Source: a virus
Lineage: Duplodnaviria > Heunggongvirae > Uroviricota > Caudoviricetes
Virus record (IMG/VR): IMGVR_UViG_2693429779_000006
DNA: 22,225 nucleotides
Strand: one strand, 5' to 3'
How positions within the stretch are numbered: the stretch's first letter is position 1; each line of letters begins with the position of its first letter. Positions 2,097-16,093 of this stretch are shown here, in pieces. The translations under genes were made by a program, and so were the position numbers. The notes below the pieces were generated by a model, which was not told where the DNA came from, searched no databases, and was given only the letters and a program-made list of their open reading frames with translations.

Positions 2097-2531
2097 TCAA
2101 TTCAAGTACTCCAATAGTTCCTGTACTATTCCGAGTAGTCTTTTTTTATCCTTTGCATTTGGTGATCTAATCTTACTCATCATTGCCAGATTCAAACATT
2201 CCGGTTTAAGCATCTGATGAAGGATCAGTATTGCCTCTACAATCATTACCTCTCGCATAGTTGCGAAGCACCATAGAATCGTTTTTGAGTACTGTTCACC
2301 ATTTTCAATTTTGTTTTTAACGACATTGGAACTACTGAGGTACTCACGCCAGCCATTTTCCTTTGAAGTGGGCTTTAGCTTTCTCGCATCCTTAACCCGC
2401 TGATAGATTTGCTTAGCACCGACATAATTAGAACCATCCTCAAACTGAAAGATATAAACGAAACCAGCATATTCACCGGATAACATTTCCTCCTCGCTCC
2501 AATCATCCGAGTATTTCCATTCACTCATCAT
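2097..2531 (-). CDS. GIY-YIG nuclease domain protein
   Basis: AGFVYIFQFEDGSNYVGAKQIYQRVKDAR matches the GIY...YIG...R core, with a downstream acidic residue in MREVMIVEAIL as the candidate catalytic Glu. AGGAA sits 6 nt upstream of the ATG. Confidence 0.55.
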   Translation of the reverse strand: MMSEWKYSDDWSEEEMLSGEYAGFVYIFQFEDGSNYVGAKQIYQRVKDARKLKPTSKENGWREYLSSSNVVKNKIENGEQYSKTILWCFATMREVMIVEAILILHQMLKPECLNLAMMSKIRSPNAKDKKRLLGIVQELLEYLN

Positions 2532-2567: not shown

Positions 2568-3017
2568 ATGAGCGATTTAAAAACACGATTAAAAGAATAT
2601 GAAGGTACTAAAGAGTATCAGGCAAATTTGAAGTACTTCAGAAATGGGAAATTCTATCCATATGCTGATAGTTTAGGATGTAGTACTATTGGATATGGTC
2701 ACTTAATTCAGGCGGGAGAAGATTTTAGTACTGGCATTACTGAAAGCGAAGCAGACAAGTTACTATCTCGCGATTTAGCCAAAACAATTATGCAGGTACA
2801 GACATTAGGGTTAAATCTTCCCGATGACTGGAATGATTTTATTATTATCATGACCTTCCAGTTAGGTATTGGCGGGGTGAAGAAATTCCGTAAGATGTTA
2901 GCAGCCCTGAAAGCACATGATTACCTTGAAGCAATTAAACAGGCTAAGTGTTCTCTATGGTACAGGCAGACACCAAACCGTGTGAATTCCATGATTGCAG
3001 TACTTAAAAACAAATAA
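2568..3017 (+). CDS. GH24 (T4-type) lysozyme, putative endolysin
   Basis: Catalytic-region motifs in T4-lysozyme order: E in KEYEGT, D in PYADSLG, T in CSTIGYGH. No N-terminal hydrophobic signal or SAR segment. This is the only confidently coding plus-strand gene in the window. Confidence 0.8.
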   Translation: MSDLKTRLKEYEGTKEYQANLKYFRNGKFYPYADSLGCSTIGYGHLIQAGEDFSTGITESEADKLLSRDLAKTIMQVQTLGLNLPDDWNDFIIIMTFQLGIGGVKKFRKMLAALKAHDYLEAIKQAKCSLWYRQTPNRVNSMIAVLKNK

Positions 3018-3340: not shown

Positions 3341-3385
3341 TTGTTGTTATTGTTATTGTTATTGTTATTGTTATTGTTATTGTAT
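3341..3385. repeat. Hexanucleotide simple sequence repeat, (TTGTTA)6 with degenerate flanking copies
   Basis: Six perfect TTGTTA units at 3344..3379 read directly, between the stop of the 218-aa gene (3385-3387) and the start of the 90-aa gene (3326-3328). It is out of frame with both genes. Confidence 0.9.
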
Positions 3386-4041
3386 TAATACCCTGTAAAT
3401 GTCGCCAATGCTATCTGGATACCATTATTCCCCATTGCCTGGCGGTAGGTTTTCTGGTTCTTTGAAACGTACTGTAGACTGAATGAAGTACTGGAATTAC
3501 GCCTGATAACCAGACCAGAGTACCCAATTACTGTACCATCATCTGATATGTTCCCCGGACATTGTGACCAGCAGAACCAGGGATCAGCTACTGGAGACGT
3601 TACCGTAATGGCAGTACTGAGATCGGTAGCCGCAGGTGCTGTCAAAAATCCCCTGATACGTGGCATTGTTGCCGCTGATGCAGCAGACCAGATTAAAGTA
3701 CCTTCTTCACTGAACACATCAAGAAAACCAGATGTGGGGGTAGCCGTGTGACTACTTGTCATGAACCTGCCCATGCCAGGCTGGAACATATAGGCACCAG
3801 GGAAACACCATGCCCCGTCTTTCTGTATCTGGAACCAGTACTGTGTTGTGTTCCTGTTAGCTACTACTGATGGCATAACGAAACCGAGCGATCCACCATT
3901 ACCGAAGGCACAGGTAAAGCCTGTGTAGTATCCCGTATCAGTTAGATTTCCCATGGCCTTTACTGCACCCGTCATTATCGACTTGTTAGTACTATCTATA
4001 GTCAGTGCACCCGCTGAATTATATACCTCGAAACCTGCCAT
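3385..4041 (-). CDS. Hypothetical protein downstream of the tail-tip gene, 218 aa
   Basis: Long ORF. N-terminus MAGFEVYNSAGALTIDSTNKSIMTG resembles the N-terminus of the adjacent 98-aa ORF. Gly/Ser/Thr-rich with several Cys and Trp. Confidence 0.5.
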   Translation of the reverse strand: MAGFEVYNSAGALTIDSTNKSIMTGAVKAMGNLTDTGYYTGFTCAFGNGGSLGFVMPSVVANRNTTQYWFQIQKDGAWCFPGAYMFQPGMGRFMTSSHTATPTSGFLDVFSEEGTLIWSAASAATMPRIRGFLTAPAATDLSTAITVTSPVADPWFCWSQCPGNISDDGTVIGYSGLVIRRNSSTSFSLQYVSKNQKTYRQAMGNNGIQIALATFTGY

Positions 4042-4042
4042 C

Positions 4043-4339
4043 TTACGCCGTCCACTTATATACGTTAAAAGTGTAGTTACCAGCTAACGGTGCATATGTT
4101 GGCAAATAAACCGCAGTAAATGACCCATTATTACAAAAGGCTGACCACTCATTAAAGGTATCACTGGCGGGGGCATAGTGTACAAACCAGCCTGTAGTTT
4201 TCATATTTGGTACTGATACAGTATAGGTCTGTGCAGAAGTAGCCTTGACAGTATAAGTACCCATAAAACGTATGTTATAATCAGTCAGATCTACTACTAA
4301 TACACCCGCTGCATTCCAACATTGTAATCCCTGTGCCAT
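4043..4339 (-). CDS. Hypothetical protein, 98 aa; short paralogue of the 218-aa neighbour
   Basis: N-terminus MAQGLQCWNAAGVLVVDLTDYNIRFMG parallels the neighbour. AGGAG sits about 8 nt upstream of the ATG. Confidence 0.5.
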   Translation of the reverse strand: MAQGLQCWNAAGVLVVDLTDYNIRFMGTYTVKATSAQTYTVSVPNMKTTGWFVHYAPASDTFNEWSAFCNNGSFTAVYLPTYAPLAGNYTFNVYKWTA

Positions 4340-4496
4340 AGCTCTTACTCCTGTAAATCCTTTTCTTCATTCCAATTGTTTCTTTTCCGCTAATACTGAA
4401 TGGGTTAGTACTGGTACTATTGAAAGTACGTTCATTAGATTTCATTTATGTATCCTTTTGAAATGAGGTTACAGTTAATAATCCCTGAATTATTTA

Positions 4497-8195
<3,699 letters not shown>

Positions 8196-9377: not shown

Positions 9378-9950
9378 TTGTTACCTCGAATATCTTCTTT
9401 CTTTATTTATTTAAAAACCTCGATTCGTATTTTTTTTAACAGGCTTGATTGGCAGGCTGCATCCGTCATCGTTGCTATGTTGTTATTTGCAGGCCAAATA
9501 GGCTATAACGCATATGATAAATGGAAAGAAAGTTCAGATGATGTTTTTAAGATGCGTGTAATCTTATTGAGCGAAATCAACAATAACCTTTTAGCTCTTG
9601 CTACTGGTGGCGATGAGTCTCAGGTGTTAGGCACATATGAAATATGTATTCCTCTTCCAACTGAAGATACAGAAGCTATTAAAAGAGTAGCAACTGCCGT
9701 TTCTTATTTGCATGATGATGTATATTATTCCCAATTAGAAAAATTAGCATCACTCCCAAAAAAAGAAGTAGATGCCATCGTAAAGAGTTATTATTCATTA
9801 TCGAGATTACGTACTCTTTCAACACAGCTTGCATACAATATTAAATACTCACCACCTAAAGTTAAATTATTGCGGGAAGAGTATTACAATCTCTATACCC
9901 TTTCATCTTCTCTTTCACAATATTTGTCTTATCACACGGAAAATCCCTAA
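9378..9950 (+). CDS. Opposite-strand insert (moron) in the tail operon: hypothetical protein with one predicted N-proximal TM helix
   Basis: A 190-codon open frame on the plus strand fills a 584-bp region that has no minus-strand ORF, in AT-rich DNA where long open frames are unlikely by chance. The track start is TTG; the first ATG is at 9477. TM candidate AASVIVAMLLFAGQIGYNAY. Confidence 0.4.
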   Translation: MLPRISSFFIYLKTSIRIFFNRLDWQAASVIVAMLLFAGQIGYNAYDKWKESSDDVFKMRVILLSEINNNLLALATGGDESQVLGTYEICIPLPTEDTEAIKRVATAVSYLHDDVYYSQLEKLASLPKKEVDAIVKSYYSLSRLRTLSTQLAYNIKYSPPKVKLLREEYYNLYTLSSSLSQYLSYHTENP

Positions 9951-12909: not shown

Positions 12910-13383
12910 TTATTCGCCCGATTCTGGTTTTGGAGTAATCAGACCTGAATCAATTGCTTCACCATCAACTGCAAGGGTGAAAGTCTTAGTTACTACTTCA
13001 TCTTTATCACCACCGATAGTGGTACTTGAAACAAAGCAGGTATAAATTACAAAGAAACCTTCTTTTTTAGTTGCATCGGTAAAATAGCTTAGTTTTACCT
13101 GACAACGTTTCTGATCGTCTGCAAGTTGTTCTAAATTCTGATGTACTGCATTATCTGGTAAGTAGTTAACTGCAAGAGAAATGTCCGGGATTGACTTAGT
13201 ACCCAATAGCTTACGATCATAAGCATTATTGAATGTTTTTACGCTAATTACAGTACTTTCAAAGCCTGAAGTACTGAAGGTGTTTACCTCTGGTACTTCT
13301 ACAAAGTCAGTAGCAACTGTTTTACCAGCACTTGAACCTACTTCTACAGTAAGGTTAGCACCGGAAAAAATATCCATAGCCAT
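12910..13383 (-). CDS. Major tail (tube) protein, short form
   Basis: 157 aa immediately upstream of the G/GT chaperones. Shares DIFSG, NTF, VNYLPD, HQ.L and VVTK motifs in the same order with the N-terminus of the 883-aa protein. Confidence 0.6.
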   Translation of the reverse strand: MAMDIFSGANLTVEVGSSAGKTVATDFVEVPEVNTFSTSGFESTVISVKTFNNAYDRKLLGTKSIPDISLAVNYLPDNAVHQNLEQLADDQKRCQVKLSYFTDATKKEGFFVIYTCFVSSTTIGGDKDEVVTKTFTLAVDGEAIDSGLITPKPESGE

Positions 13384-13441: not shown

Positions 13442-16093
13442 TTATTTATTATTTAATAGCTGTTGTACTAAATCTTTTAGCTGATTAATTTCTTCTTGTT
13501 GGGCTTGAATAGCTCCCATCAAGTCCATCACTATTGGATTTAAATCAACACGTGGATGATCACGAGTGACAATCTCCCCTTCTATTTCAACTGTTTCTTC
13601 ATCATGCTTAATGTACTGCGGAGCAGTCAACTCAGCATCTTCGGCGATAACACCAAACCTAACCCTTTCTTGTTCATCATCCTTGTAGATAAACGTTACT
13701 AAATCTTGTGACATTATCCGATCTAATGCTTCAACTGGATTTGCTGGAGTTATGTCTCTTTTAAACTCACGACCTGATGTACCTTGAGCTTGCATTACTA
13801 ACCATCCAAACCATGTTGTACCGTTCCCGCCTCGTACTCTTAAAGTACCACCACCGTCTATCTGAAGCTGAGAGCGATTTGCCCCTGGGTATCTTTGCAT
13901 GTGCAATAAAGGGGAATATTTTTCACTATAGTTAATACCTGAGTCACCTGGCCCTGCATACATACCGTTAAAGGTGATGGTATTGGCATCTGTCGGTCCC
14001 GAAACAGCGGTATTAGTCATCCATCCTGATTGAACATCAGTTAGGATCGTTCCAGTCGGCCCTTTTAGCCCCCATAGTTTATCCTCTGCACCATTTTCAG
14101 AAATAAAAAGGGTGAGATCAGCCTGTCCAGTCTGTCCCATCGTTTTACCAACCCGAAAACCACCAGATATTTCAGTTGATGTACCAATGTTGCATATCGA
14201 ACGAATACGCCCTCCAGTTACATAACTACCAATTGCCGTAGAGGAAGGGGAAGAAGCAATAACATCCCATTGAGGACTAACTGAAGTACGACTACTCAGC
14301 AAGTTTTCAACCCAGCGTTTGGTAGTCGCGTCAGAATCAGAGACAGGATCTCCTGCTAAAGAAGTTGCACCCGTAGGACGAATCGCAGGCCATAACTCAG
14401 CCTGAGTCTTAACACCAGTACCGCCCTGCGGAATTGCTAATGCTTTCCAGCCAGTGAAAGCACCCGCAATATATGTAGCTGAACCCCATTGCCCTCCATC
14501 ATAAACCACTAATGCAGCGGAAGAATCAGCGGATTTAATAGTTGTTAAATTACTACCTTGATTAAAGCGATCCACCTGAAAGTTTAGGCGAGCACTCAAA
14601 GCATCTGTAGCCCCTGTCCCCCCCTGACCTATACCTAAAGCAATCCATCCAGTACCAGTACTTGCACCCCATGCCCCGTTATCCTGAATTCGGATACGGT
14701 TAGTCAGGTCATTACTCATCAGATCGGTGTACGTAGCACCCTGAGTCAAACGGTTCACCTGTAGGTTAGTACGTGCTGTAGAGAGACTGGATAGATCAGA
14801 AAGGTTACTCGCTTTCTTCATGGAAGCGGAATCAAGGGAAGTAATACTGTCAGCTAAAGCCGTTACCTCTGCATCTACTTCATCCATTGAGTAAACAGCA
14901 AGGTTAATACGTGCTTCTTCCACGTCCCCCAGATCACTTAGATTACCTGCTATCGTAAGCTGGGCATCATCTGTAACCTTCCCTAAGCCAACATCAGTAC
15001 TGGTAAGTACTACATCCTCACTGAGTACATGACCGTTGACCATACGTGTATCAGGTACTGAACCTGTATCTTCACTACTCAGTACTACATTTTCACTAAG
15101 TACATGACCGTTCACTGTACGCGTGTCAGGTACTGAACCTGTATCTTCACTACTCAGTACTATATCTTCACTGAGTACATGACCATTAACTGTCCGTGTA
15201 TCTGGTACAGAGCCGGTATCAGTACTGGTAAGTACTACATCCTCACTTAGAGGCTTACCATTCACAGTACGTGTATCAGGTACTGAACCTGTATCTTCAC
15301 TGTTCAGTACTAAATTGGCCGTGAGTGCATGGCCGTTGATGGTACGTGTAAGGGGTACGTATCGCCCGTCCATCTGTGTAGCGGTATATATGCGTGTCCA
15401 GGCGGTTGTAGCGTTCTTTGCATAGATACTTAGAGTACCCGTCTTTGTCATCGCAAGAGAACTTACAGTAGTGCCATCTACAAGCCCTACTCCCATCAGA
15501 TCCGCCCCGGCAGGATTGCCTGCTTGAGATGATGGTACTTTGATGAAGCTGTTACCCGTAGGTACTGATGGTGAGTACTGAGGTACATCCGTAGTGTTCG
15601 AACCTAAACCGTAGTCCCCCTGATAGATTGGCGATAGTGCGTTAATGGTCATTGCACGTGCGATCACATCATGTGGGGCAAAACTGTATGCCTTGGTTAC
15701 TACTGAACCTTTATCACCGTCCAACTTATAAGAGGTGATATAACCATTCACCATCGCATAAGTAATGGTATTTTCATCCTTATTCATCTGGTACTGAATG
15801 ATGATCTGGAAAAGCTGCTGAGACTTAGCGGCATTATCCAAGAATTGATGTGTAGGATCATCAGGTAGGTAGTTAACTACAATATCAAATGGTGCTACTG
15901 ATTTATCAGATAGTAGTACTGTCCTGTAATCACTATCATACGTTTCAAAATTATTTGCTTCTGAATTTATTGTTAAGGTTGGAAAAGTATTAATCTGTTT
16001 AATTACTACATTGCCTGCTCCCTGTGGTGTTCTGTTACCAATATCAGCATTATACTGTACTGATAATTCTCTTCCTGAGAAAATATCACTCAT
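13442..16093 (-). CDS. Chimeric tail protein: tail-tube-like N-domain, tandem tail-fibre repeats and a C-terminal S74-type intramolecular chaperone domain
   Basis: aa 1-150 are paralogous to the 157-aa major tail protein. aa 249-368 hold five 25-aa repeats (TRTVNGHVLSEDVVLSSEDTGSVPD). The C-terminus reads FKRDITP...ALDRIMSQDLVTFIYKDD...RFGVIAEDAELTAP, resembling the self-cleaving chaperone domain of tail fibres and tailspikes, and ends in a coiled coil. Confidence 0.65.
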   Translation of the reverse strand: MSDIFSGRELSVQYNADIGNRTPQGAGNVVIKQINTFPTLTINSEANNFETYDSDYRTVLLSDKSVAPFDIVVNYLPDDPTHQFLDNAAKSQQLFQIIIQYQMNKDENTITYAMVNGYITSYKLDGDKGSVVTKAYSFAPHDVIARAMTINALSPIYQGDYGLGSNTTDVPQYSPSVPTGNSFIKVPSSQAGNPAGADLMGVGLVDGTTVSSLAMTKTGTLSIYAKNATTAWTRIYTATQMDGRYVPLTRTINGHALTANLVLNSEDTGSVPDTRTVNGKPLSEDVVLTSTDTGSVPDTRTVNGHVLSEDIVLSSEDTGSVPDTRTVNGHVLSENVVLSSEDTGSVPDTRMVNGHVLSEDVVLTSTDVGLGKVTDDAQLTIAGNLSDLGDVEEARINLAVYSMDEVDAEVTALADSITSLDSASMKKASNLSDLSSLSTARTNLQVNRLTQGATYTDLMSNDLTNRIRIQDNGAWGASTGTGWIALGIGQGGTGATDALSARLNFQVDRFNQGSNLTTIKSADSSAALVVYDGGQWGSATYIAGAFTGWKALAIPQGGTGVKTQAELWPAIRPTGATSLAGDPVSDSDATTKRWVENLLSSRTSVSPQWDVIASSPSSTAIGSYVTGGRIRSICNIGTSTEISGGFRVGKTMGQTGQADLTLFISENGAEDKLWGLKGPTGTILTDVQSGWMTNTAVSGPTDANTITFNGMYAGPGDSGINYSEKYSPLLHMQRYPGANRSQLQIDGGGTLRVRGGNGTTWFGWLVMQAQGTSGREFKRDITPANPVEALDRIMSQDLVTFIYKDDEQERVRFGVIAEDAELTAPQYIKHDEETVEIEGEIVTRDHPRVDLNPIVMDLMGAIQAQQEEINQLKDLVQQLLNNK
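14990..15349 (-). repeat. Tandem 75-bp coding repeats (about 5 copies) inside the 883-aa gene
   Basis: Near-identical DNA units are visible directly, for example ...tcactgagtacatgaccgtt...acgtgtatcaggtactgaacctgtatcttcactactcagtact..., each encoding one 25-aa repeat. Confidence 0.85.

Follow-up and report, generated by a model that had tools for sequence, protein, structure and literature searches.

Organization of the locus

We analysed a 22,225-nt stretch of a tailed-phage genome (IMG/VR record IMGVR_UViG_2693429779_000006; hereafter the window), which comes from an Escherichia coli/Shigella prophage whose family adjoins mipA, and focused on two adjacent open reading frames (ORFs) downstream of its tail-tip gene. 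Both lie on the minus strand and encode proteins of 98 aa (4043..4339), a candidate adaptor, and 218 aa (3385..4041), a candidate receptor-binding protein (RBP). An earlier note, made from the sequence alone, had placed the two ORFs correctly, had called their products paralogous and of unknown function, and had proposed that they might be receptor-binding accessories, side-fibre or fibre-assembly proteins, or outer-membrane cargo.

The gene that precedes the pair (4497..7799, minus strand) encodes a J-like central tail fibre or tail-tip protein of 1100 aa, which matches phrog_31 ('central tail fiber J', E 1.6e-61) and in Pfam contains Phage_Tail_Tip (PF09327, E 4.8e-20), Phage-tail_3 (PF13550) and fn3 domains. 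It is presumed to be the trimeric carrier of the two small proteins, with its last 38 residues (4500..4613, minus strand) as the presumed docking tail, to judge from the comparison of J tails described below. The remaining window is a compact siphovirus structural module that ends in J and includes a large terminase, a portal, a protease-capsid fusion, tail tube proteins, a tape measure, a distal tail protein and two more tail-tip proteins. The 98-aa gene has an AGGAG ribosome-binding site (4348..4352) located 8 nt 5′ of its ATG. Because its stop codon (TAA, 4045..4043) and the start codon of the 218-aa gene (ATG, 4041..4039) are separated by 1 nt, the two genes are probably co-translated.

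Families and distribution of the two proteins

The 98-aa protein was assigned to phrog_7961 (E 9e-16) and the 218-aa protein, over its full length, to phrog_4524 (E 1.6e-54) in PHROGs. Neither protein matched Pfam-A above threshold in a copy that did not contain the PF28254 (DUF8377) model; this family is precomputed on P0018, a protein 97% identical to the 218-aa protein, and on 77/77 homologues. The 218-aa family comprised 73 clusters at E ≤1e-3 among 1.84 billion representatives, nearly all of 210-230 aa. In tblastn searches, the 218-aa protein was 36.5, 37.0, 36.5 and 41.5% identical to its counterparts in Bas11, IME347, Henu7 and Eeyore, respectively, at 100% coverage, and compared with the proteins of Bas11, IME347, Eeyore and HK639 the identity ranged from 36 to 44%, also at 100% coverage. 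Variable stretches of the family alignment are located at residues of about 20-35, 40-65 and 130-155, and the C-terminal half is better conserved than the N-terminal half (42-47 vs 32-43% in three phage homologues).

In every locus examined, a gene of the 98-aa type was located directly upstream of the DUF8377 gene, and the pair adjoined the 3′ end of a J-like gene across unrelated backbones. This was the case in the lambdoid phage HK639 and in KW1E_UTAR; in the Drexlerviridae Skenny, Bas11 (JohannLBurckhardt), BananaBelafonte and IME347, in which J and the pair are convergent and a third gene comes after the pair; in near-identical and 71%-identical E. coli and Shigella prophages beside mipA; and in the Acinetobacter podovirus XC38 (Schitoviridae), where the pair lies downstream of a giant tail protein. 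DUF8377 proteins are also encoded by phages of Klebsiella, Cronobacter, Enterobacter, Pantoea and Acinetobacter. In XC38, the annotated 134-aa product of gp35 (L028, 3593-3997) bears a hydrophobic N-terminal extension, and an in-frame GTG at codon 28, following AAGGAG, gives a protein that begins with MPQGLQAWDADG..., like the family N-terminus; the annotated start is probably wrong.

Searches of NCBIfam and of the PADLOC defence families returned no match for either protein, and neither of them contains a signal peptide, a lipobox or a transmembrane (TM) segment, with maximum Kyte-Doolittle means over 19 residues of 0.92 and 1.16. Both proteins appear to be soluble and to lack an export signal, and therefore fit virion rather than envelope proteins. 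The proposal of an outer-membrane or cargo protein thus found no support in signal peptides, TM segments or defence-family matches.

A shared N-terminal hairpin motif

Both proteins begin with the pattern MA(Q)G[L/F][Q/E]..N.AG.L.[VI]D.T, which is about 17 residues long and corresponds to residues 4-20 of the 98-aa protein (GLQCWNAAGVLVVDLTD; 4280..4330, minus strand) and residues 3-19 of the 218-aa protein (GFEVYNSAGALTIDSTN; 3985..4035, minus strand). Local alignment of the two N-terminal 22-mers gave a score of 43, which was reached by 0/20,000 shuffles (permutation p<5e-5); corresponding p-values were about 3e-4 for the 218-aa N-terminus against the entire 98-aa protein and 0.007 for the two entire proteins. 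A regular expression of the motif matched only these two N-termini among the 44,446 six-frame residues of the window, and hhalign aligned the family profiles, built from database homologues of each protein, over 16-20 N-terminal columns (E 1e-5 to 3.7e-5, probability 71-82%). By these alignment tests, the shared motif is genuine but short, and the pattern described in the earlier note holds for approximately 17 residues.

Pairwise BLASTP of the two proteins was not significant (E 5.4). A hidden Markov model (HMM) of 120 small-family proteins produced an in-register N-terminal match in 75/75 DUF8377 proteins, with a maximum of 8.7 bits vs 6.8 bits for the best of 1,480 shuffled controls; because these scores are barely above that control, the result carries no weight as proof. 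Because BLASTP was not significant and the HMM scores were close to those of shuffled controls, paralogy by sequence is limited to the N-terminal hairpin, and for the remainder of the two proteins it depends on predicted structure.

Predicted structures and probable internal duplication

The AlphaFold2 models of the 98-aa and 218-aa proteins, with pLDDT (predicted local distance difference test) values of 88.5 and 87.4, respectively, are all-beta, and each opens with a lower-confidence beta-hairpin made by the motif. The hairpin strands span residues 6-8 and 14-17 in the 98-aa protein (pLDDT 73-79) and residues 5-7 and 13-16 in the 218-aa protein (pLDDT 67-74). A second, internal hairpin motif of the 218-aa protein, GFLDVFSEEGTLIWSAA (residues about 105-121; 3679..3729, minus strand), would mark the start of a second domain and is the site where the 98-aa profile (E 0.016) and the profile of the N-terminal half (E 0.0033) both find their best local match. 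Secondary structure elements follow a corresponding order in residues 103-218 and in the 98-aa protein (gapped z = 4.2, block shuffles), a comparison that reached only z = 1.9 for the N-terminal half, and the first 45 secondary-structure positions agree best at an offset of 102 (80% agreement). In addition, residues 102-177 of HK639 gp25 match the small-protein family phrog_2427 (E 4.7e-4), and counterparts of the internal motif are located in T1 gp31 (111-124) and in gp54 of the Pseudomonas phage DEV (113-128). The 218-aa protein therefore probably consists of two tandem beta-sandwich domains of the type that is predicted once in the 98-aa protein, and the models suggest that the pair is paralogous over full domains.

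A PDB sequence search returned no match for either protein, with weak Fab matches that we attribute to chance. At the level of predicted structure, the pair matched the fold of the solved LptD-type RBP (PDB 9RPT). A 134-aa XC38 protein found by Foldseek seemed to connect the 98-aa fold with the N-terminal half of the 218-aa protein, but this reading was ruled out: gp35 and gp36 are separate genes and represent a further instance of the pair, not evidence of paralogy.

Co-variation of the J tail with the pair

We compared the J proteins of 14 phages over their last 38 residues and over residues -290 to -60. The J tail of the window was 53-68% identical to six other tails of the same module type, and 21-37% identical to FhuA-type and LptD-type J tails. 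Residues -290 to -60 clustered by lineage (Sushi/Skenny 93%, UAE_MI-01/Oekolampad 90%, phi80/HK639 71%), with the window J at 20-28% identity to all others in this region. Sushi and Skenny, 93% identical in the J body vs 29% in the tail, carry different downstream modules, and the giant tail protein of the podovirus XC38, gp34, ends like the window J just before its copy of the pair. Because the J tail follows the module and the J body follows the lineage, the exchanged unit appears to comprise the J tail, the small gene and the large gene. Such co-variation is as expected if the tail were the docking site, and it agrees with a preprint in which the C-terminal tip of GpJ was associated with specificity (10.64898/2026.04.02.716166). 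The J C-terminal profile aligned with the hairpin motif in the same register every time, at an E of about 0.002 and a probability of 12-14%, a result that we use only for the speculative cap arrangement considered below.

Comparison with characterized receptor-binding modules

The YncD-type locus of Bas10, Bas11, IME347 and, by prediction, Eeyore contains the same two families as the window (phrog_7961 and phrog_4524/DUF8377), likewise beside the 3′ end of a J-like gene with a tail of the same class. The backbones differ, the window being part of a compact prophage beside mipA with a J body of 20-28% identity, and the pair is co-directional with J in the window but convergent with it in the Drexlerviridae. 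Bas10, Bas11 and IME347 depend on YncD as the terminal receptor (PMC8594841), which was confirmed by random barcode transposon-site sequencing for Bas10 and Bas11 (10.64898/2026.04.02.716166), and allelic variants of the gpJ-adjacent locus were matched to each receptor by Maffei et al. 2021 (PMC8594841). The preprint 10.64898/2026.04.02.716166 distinguishes four unrelated RBP families, for FhuA, BtuB, LptD and YncD, defined by >30% identity and >99% coverage, with one accessory protein or two alongside the RBPs; it reports AlphaFold3 interface scores (ipTM) of 0.78-0.83 for YncD-RBP models, and for the temperate phage Eeyore it derives a YncD prediction solely from the locus. Because it is 36.5-41.5% identical to members of the YncD RBP family at 100% coverage, the 218-aa protein falls within that family as defined there.

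The third gene of the Drexlerviridae locus, which encodes a protein of ~110 aa with a signal peptide (phrog_25729), has no counterpart beside the window pair. In these genes (L004, 7726-8058; L002, 6726-7058; L006, 5726-6064) the signal peptide looks cleavable, and the product is a candidate periplasmic superinfection-exclusion factor for the same receptor.

A module of corresponding layout has been dissected in DEV, whose operon gp56-gp55-gp54 encodes a J-like trimeric short fibre and proteins of 99 and 223 aa, all of them essential (PMC12892993). There, gp54 is present in virions and can acquire suppressor mutations that restore growth on an lptD mutant; according to an AlphaFold3 model (ipTM 0.8) and a cryo-EM map of low resolution, the C-terminus of the gp56 trimer carries a single copy each of gp55 and gp54, and in this complex, modelled as 3:1:1, gp55 was proposed to be the adaptor and gp54 the RBP (PMC12892993). 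Gp55 was not clearly detected in DEV virions by mass spectrometry, and gp55 orthologues are reported as structural proteins in LIT1 (PMC12892993). The window shares with DEV the order of J-like fibre, ~99-aa and ~220-aa genes with coupled starts. The N-terminus of gp55, MSYGFRFYDANGNVTVDSTNKS, carries the same hairpin motif as the small window protein, and gp54 has the motif at its N-terminus and at residues 113-128 (GWGMQVFDADGNGVFD), as in the large window protein. The tail of gp56 is related to the window J tail (...LRV...). DEV differs from the window in being a Pseudomonas podovirus with LptD as receptor, a fibre located beside the tail plug, and other PHROG and Pfam families. Together with the YncD-linked locus of the 218-aa homologues (PMC8594841; 10.64898/2026.04.02.716166), this dissected layout makes the designation 'unknown function' outdated.

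The same arrangement of a small and a large gene after J is found in T1 gp32/gp31 (equivalent to N15 gp22/gp23 and phi80 22/23), with 101 and 229 aa and an associated cor gene. The T1 gp32/N15 gp22 family is remotely homologous to the 98-aa profile (85% probability, E 6.4e-6, 44 columns), and T1-type large proteins carry the hairpin motif at the N-terminus and at residue ~111. These modules belong to other PHROGs (phrog_557 and phrog_425, as opposed to phrog_4524 for the 218-aa protein), have a J tail of a different class (...GEGAMKxTNxxISVRDxxGxLRVQIGRLTGxW), and are accompanied by the Cor lipoprotein, with FhuA as receptor; the ORF list contained no cor-like ORF near the window pair. A literature search on the function of T1 gp31/gp32 and on virion proteomics of NBD2, IME347 or Henu7 yielded no usable result. 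Because the window pair lacks export signals and because of the module evidence, the designation of the T1/N15 products as 'outer membrane protein' or 'membrane associated protein' is probably wrong.

The LptD-binding RBP of Oekolampad/Rtp44 is a single 321-aa chain with no small protein (PDB 9RPT; PMC12685063). It belongs to phrog_1265 and comes with another J tail, a lipoprotein exclusion factor and LptD as receptor; the window proteins do not match phrog_1265 and are separate chains rather than the single chain of ~310-320 aa typical of the LptD type. In T5, the monomeric receptor-binding protein pb5 sits non-covalently on the trimeric central fibre pb4 and targets a TonB-dependent transporter. 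The likeness to the window is one of functional analogy only, pb5 being a single large protein encoded at another genomic position, and pb5 was absent among the matches in PDB-sequence and structure searches of the window proteins.

Proposed function and alternatives

The observed gene pair, its adjacency to J, its family membership, its fold similarity to an RBP, the J-tail co-variation and the hairpin motif are best accounted for if the pair consists of an adaptor and a receptor-binding protein that form the distal, non-covalently attached part of the J-tip complex, with YncD as the probable receptor; to this reading, YncD included, we assign a probability of about 0.6. The broader statement that the pair is a virion-borne receptor-binding module of the J tip, whichever receptor it recognizes, is likely. 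Of the functions suggested in the earlier note, receptor-binding accessories is thus the one best supported, by a conserved module tied to the 3′ ends of J-like genes.

We propose that the 218-aa DUF8377 protein is the RBP, that its N-terminal side would face the phage and that its C-terminal domain would contact a TonB-dependent transporter of the outer membrane, most probably YncD. The one-domain 98-aa adaptor, made in step with it, would help to fasten the RBP to the C-terminal residues (about 38) of the trimeric J, in a docking geometry that we infer, and once the receptor is bound, the phage would be committed to adsorbing irreversibly and ejecting its DNA.

Several points weigh against this reading. 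Virion presence and both roles are transferred by analogy from DEV gp55/gp54, and the analogy is drawn from layout and motifs, with weak sequence homology: hhalign scores were marginal for the 98-aa profile vs gp55 (E 4e-4, probability 34%, 31 columns) and for the 218-aa profile vs gp54 (E 0.016, probability 3%). Because these profile scores are marginal, our claim concerns the mode of action, in which the window module would resemble the DEV fibre, and not shared membership of a sequence family. The preprint's CDS_0024 of Bas11 was equated with the 216-aa gene only by the number match to bas11_0024. Finally, a cognate superinfection-exclusion gene is not located beside the window pair, unlike in the Drexlerviridae, T1/N15 and Rtp/Oekolampad modules.

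The choice of YncD as probable receptor follows, by sequence comparison, from homologues that are 36-44% identical, a level at which the receptor could differ. The same adaptor and RBP complex might therefore recognize another TonB-dependent transporter or outer-membrane protein, a possibility that we regard as real though clearly less likely than YncD. That the DUF8377 family spans phages of Klebsiella, Cronobacter and Acinetobacter, as well as Enterobacter and Pantoea, speaks for it, and the variable stretches at residues ~20-35, 40-65 and 130-155 could be receptor-contacting loops. Against it, one receptor per family was found at >30% identity (10.64898/2026.04.02.716166), yncD is present in the host species, and the half that the AlphaFold3 models of the preprint set on the receptor, the C-terminal one, is the better conserved half.

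The remaining alternatives concern the location and the role of the proteins. Small genes beside fibre genes often encode chaperones, as lambda Tfa and T4 gp38/gp57 do, and the 98-aa protein, whose gene is tightly coupled in translation to the next, might likewise be an assembly chaperone for the 218-aa protein or the J tip that is absent from the finished virion; the uncertain detection of gp55 in DEV virions (PMC12892993) would suit such a role. We consider this unlikely, since the predicted fold and the hairpin, shared with both domains of the 218-aa protein, are more in keeping with a structural partner, gp55 orthologues are structural in LIT1, and the AlphaFold3 model includes gp55 in the complex (PMC12892993). 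A function of both proteins in the infected or lysogenic cell, as superinfection-exclusion or membrane-associated accessories outside the virion, appears very improbable. It is favoured by the legacy names of T1 gp32/gp31 and N15 gp22/gp23, by the KanT1 paper, which speculates on an exclusion function for the two genes upstream of cor (PMC13164509), and again by the gp55 mass spectrometry result (PMC12892993). The true exclusion proteins of these loci, though, carry export signals (the lipoprotein bas18_0026 of Oekolampad, the signal peptide of Bas11_0023), and the window pair lacks signal peptides, lipoboxes and TM segments; moreover, its fold matches a virion RBP, the J tail co-varies with the module, and in DEV gp54 and gp55 are essential for plaques, with gp54 in the virion (PMC12892993). 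Least likely, in our judgement, are side-fibre, fibre-assembly or moron cargo genes of the lambda type (stf, tfa, lom). Position downstream of J and the tail-fibre gene that follows the module in HK639, KW1E, N15 and phi80 argue for them, yet Pfam, PHROGs and NCBIfam gave no Stf, Tfa or Lom match, no defence family matched, the window has no fibre gene after the pair, and the Drexlerviridae pair stays beside J and not beside the lateral fibre gene.

More speculatively, the three homologous beta-sandwich domains of the adaptor and RBP might form a pseudo-threefold cap, their hairpins docking one-to-one on the three J tails; each domain starts with a hairpin of the type G-phi-x-phi-[WYF]-[DN]-x-x-G-x-L, and the J tails end in a similar hairpin-like sequence. 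We hold this arrangement to be tentative and rather doubtful, although it is compatible with the 3:1:1 model of DEV. If true, the cap would reconcile the unequal symmetries of a threefold fibre and a monomeric receptor; J tail, adaptor and RBP would travel between siphoviruses and podoviruses as a plug-and-socket cassette, and the 321-aa single-chain LptD binder would be a fused version (98 + 218 = 316 residues).

The module type as such has been described within the last five years. Three points were not found stated in the cited literature: that a hairpin signature appears to open all three domains, that the 218-aa protein is probably duplicated internally, and that a podovirus infecting another host genus carries a cassette of the DUF8377 type together with its J tail. 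The proposed roles provide a working function for two 'hypothetical' genes, one of them still a Pfam DUF, that recur as a pair in relatives among Enterobacteriaceae prophages, and they would place the J-tip receptor-binding module on a further phage backbone. Sequence may allow one to predict which receptor such phages and prophages use, and the exchange boundary, comprising the J tail and the two genes, would mark a cut site for re-targeting phages.

Other features of the region

The 157-bp spacer between J and the 98-aa gene (4340..4496, minus strand) is present as described in the earlier note, but its length is not conserved: in relatives that are ~71% identical in the 98-aa protein it measures 45 nt. 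It contains a weak hairpin directly after the J stop, and we found no consensus promoter or terminator, no Rfam family and no extra stability of the RNA fold relative to shuffles (z +0.86) within it. At the hairpin (~4460-4485, minus strand), the close relatives L019-L022 have a perfect 7-bp stem, GGGGTTA/TAACCCC, that is weakened in the window by two non-compensating substitutions; the element may serve as a weak terminator, comparable to the terminator annotated between J and gp32 of T1. A 54-aa ORF rich in Ser, Thr and Asn (4281-4445, minus strand), with an AAGGA site, starts in the spacer and overlaps the start of the 98-aa gene out of frame. It was called by the gene caller in L022, and because the region is near-identical across close relatives, its conservation is uninformative.

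Downstream of the 218-aa gene, a (TAACAA)n microsatellite (3344-3383, minus strand) makes up most of the 56-nt spacer between the stop codon and the next ATG, and its copy number varies among close relatives, with 6 copies in the window, L015, L017 and L018, 7 in L016 and 1 in L019-L022. The gene that follows encodes a 90-aa protein with an N-terminal TM segment, a coiled coil and a weak DUF2730 match. A megablast search of the region against the phage collection gave no match, and the sole stretch matched among 5,426 complete E. coli genomes was one of 625 bp in the 3′ end of J. The prophage family is located beside mipA in the E. coli chromosomes L023-L027, several of which have a J gene split or truncated by insertion sequence elements and intact 98-aa and 218-aa genes.

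Elsewhere in the window, a GIY-YIG (SegE-like) homing-endonuclease-type ORF (2097-2531, minus strand) lies beside a lysozyme gene (2568-3017, plus strand) that is encoded on the strand opposite to the structural genes. An 883-aa ORF (13442-16093, minus strand), located just upstream of an ordinary major tail protein of 157 aa (12910-13383, minus strand), combines a major-tail-protein N-terminal domain (phrog_158) with a long tail-fibre-like C-terminal region and could be a tube subunit that bears a fibre. Between the tape-measure and distal-tail-protein genes, a 190-aa ORF with a TTG start (9378-9950, plus strand) is inserted on the opposite strand; relatives have another reverse-oriented gene at this position, encoding either 157 aa or a 206-aa DUF6216 protein, and the site looks like a variable cargo slot within the tail operon.

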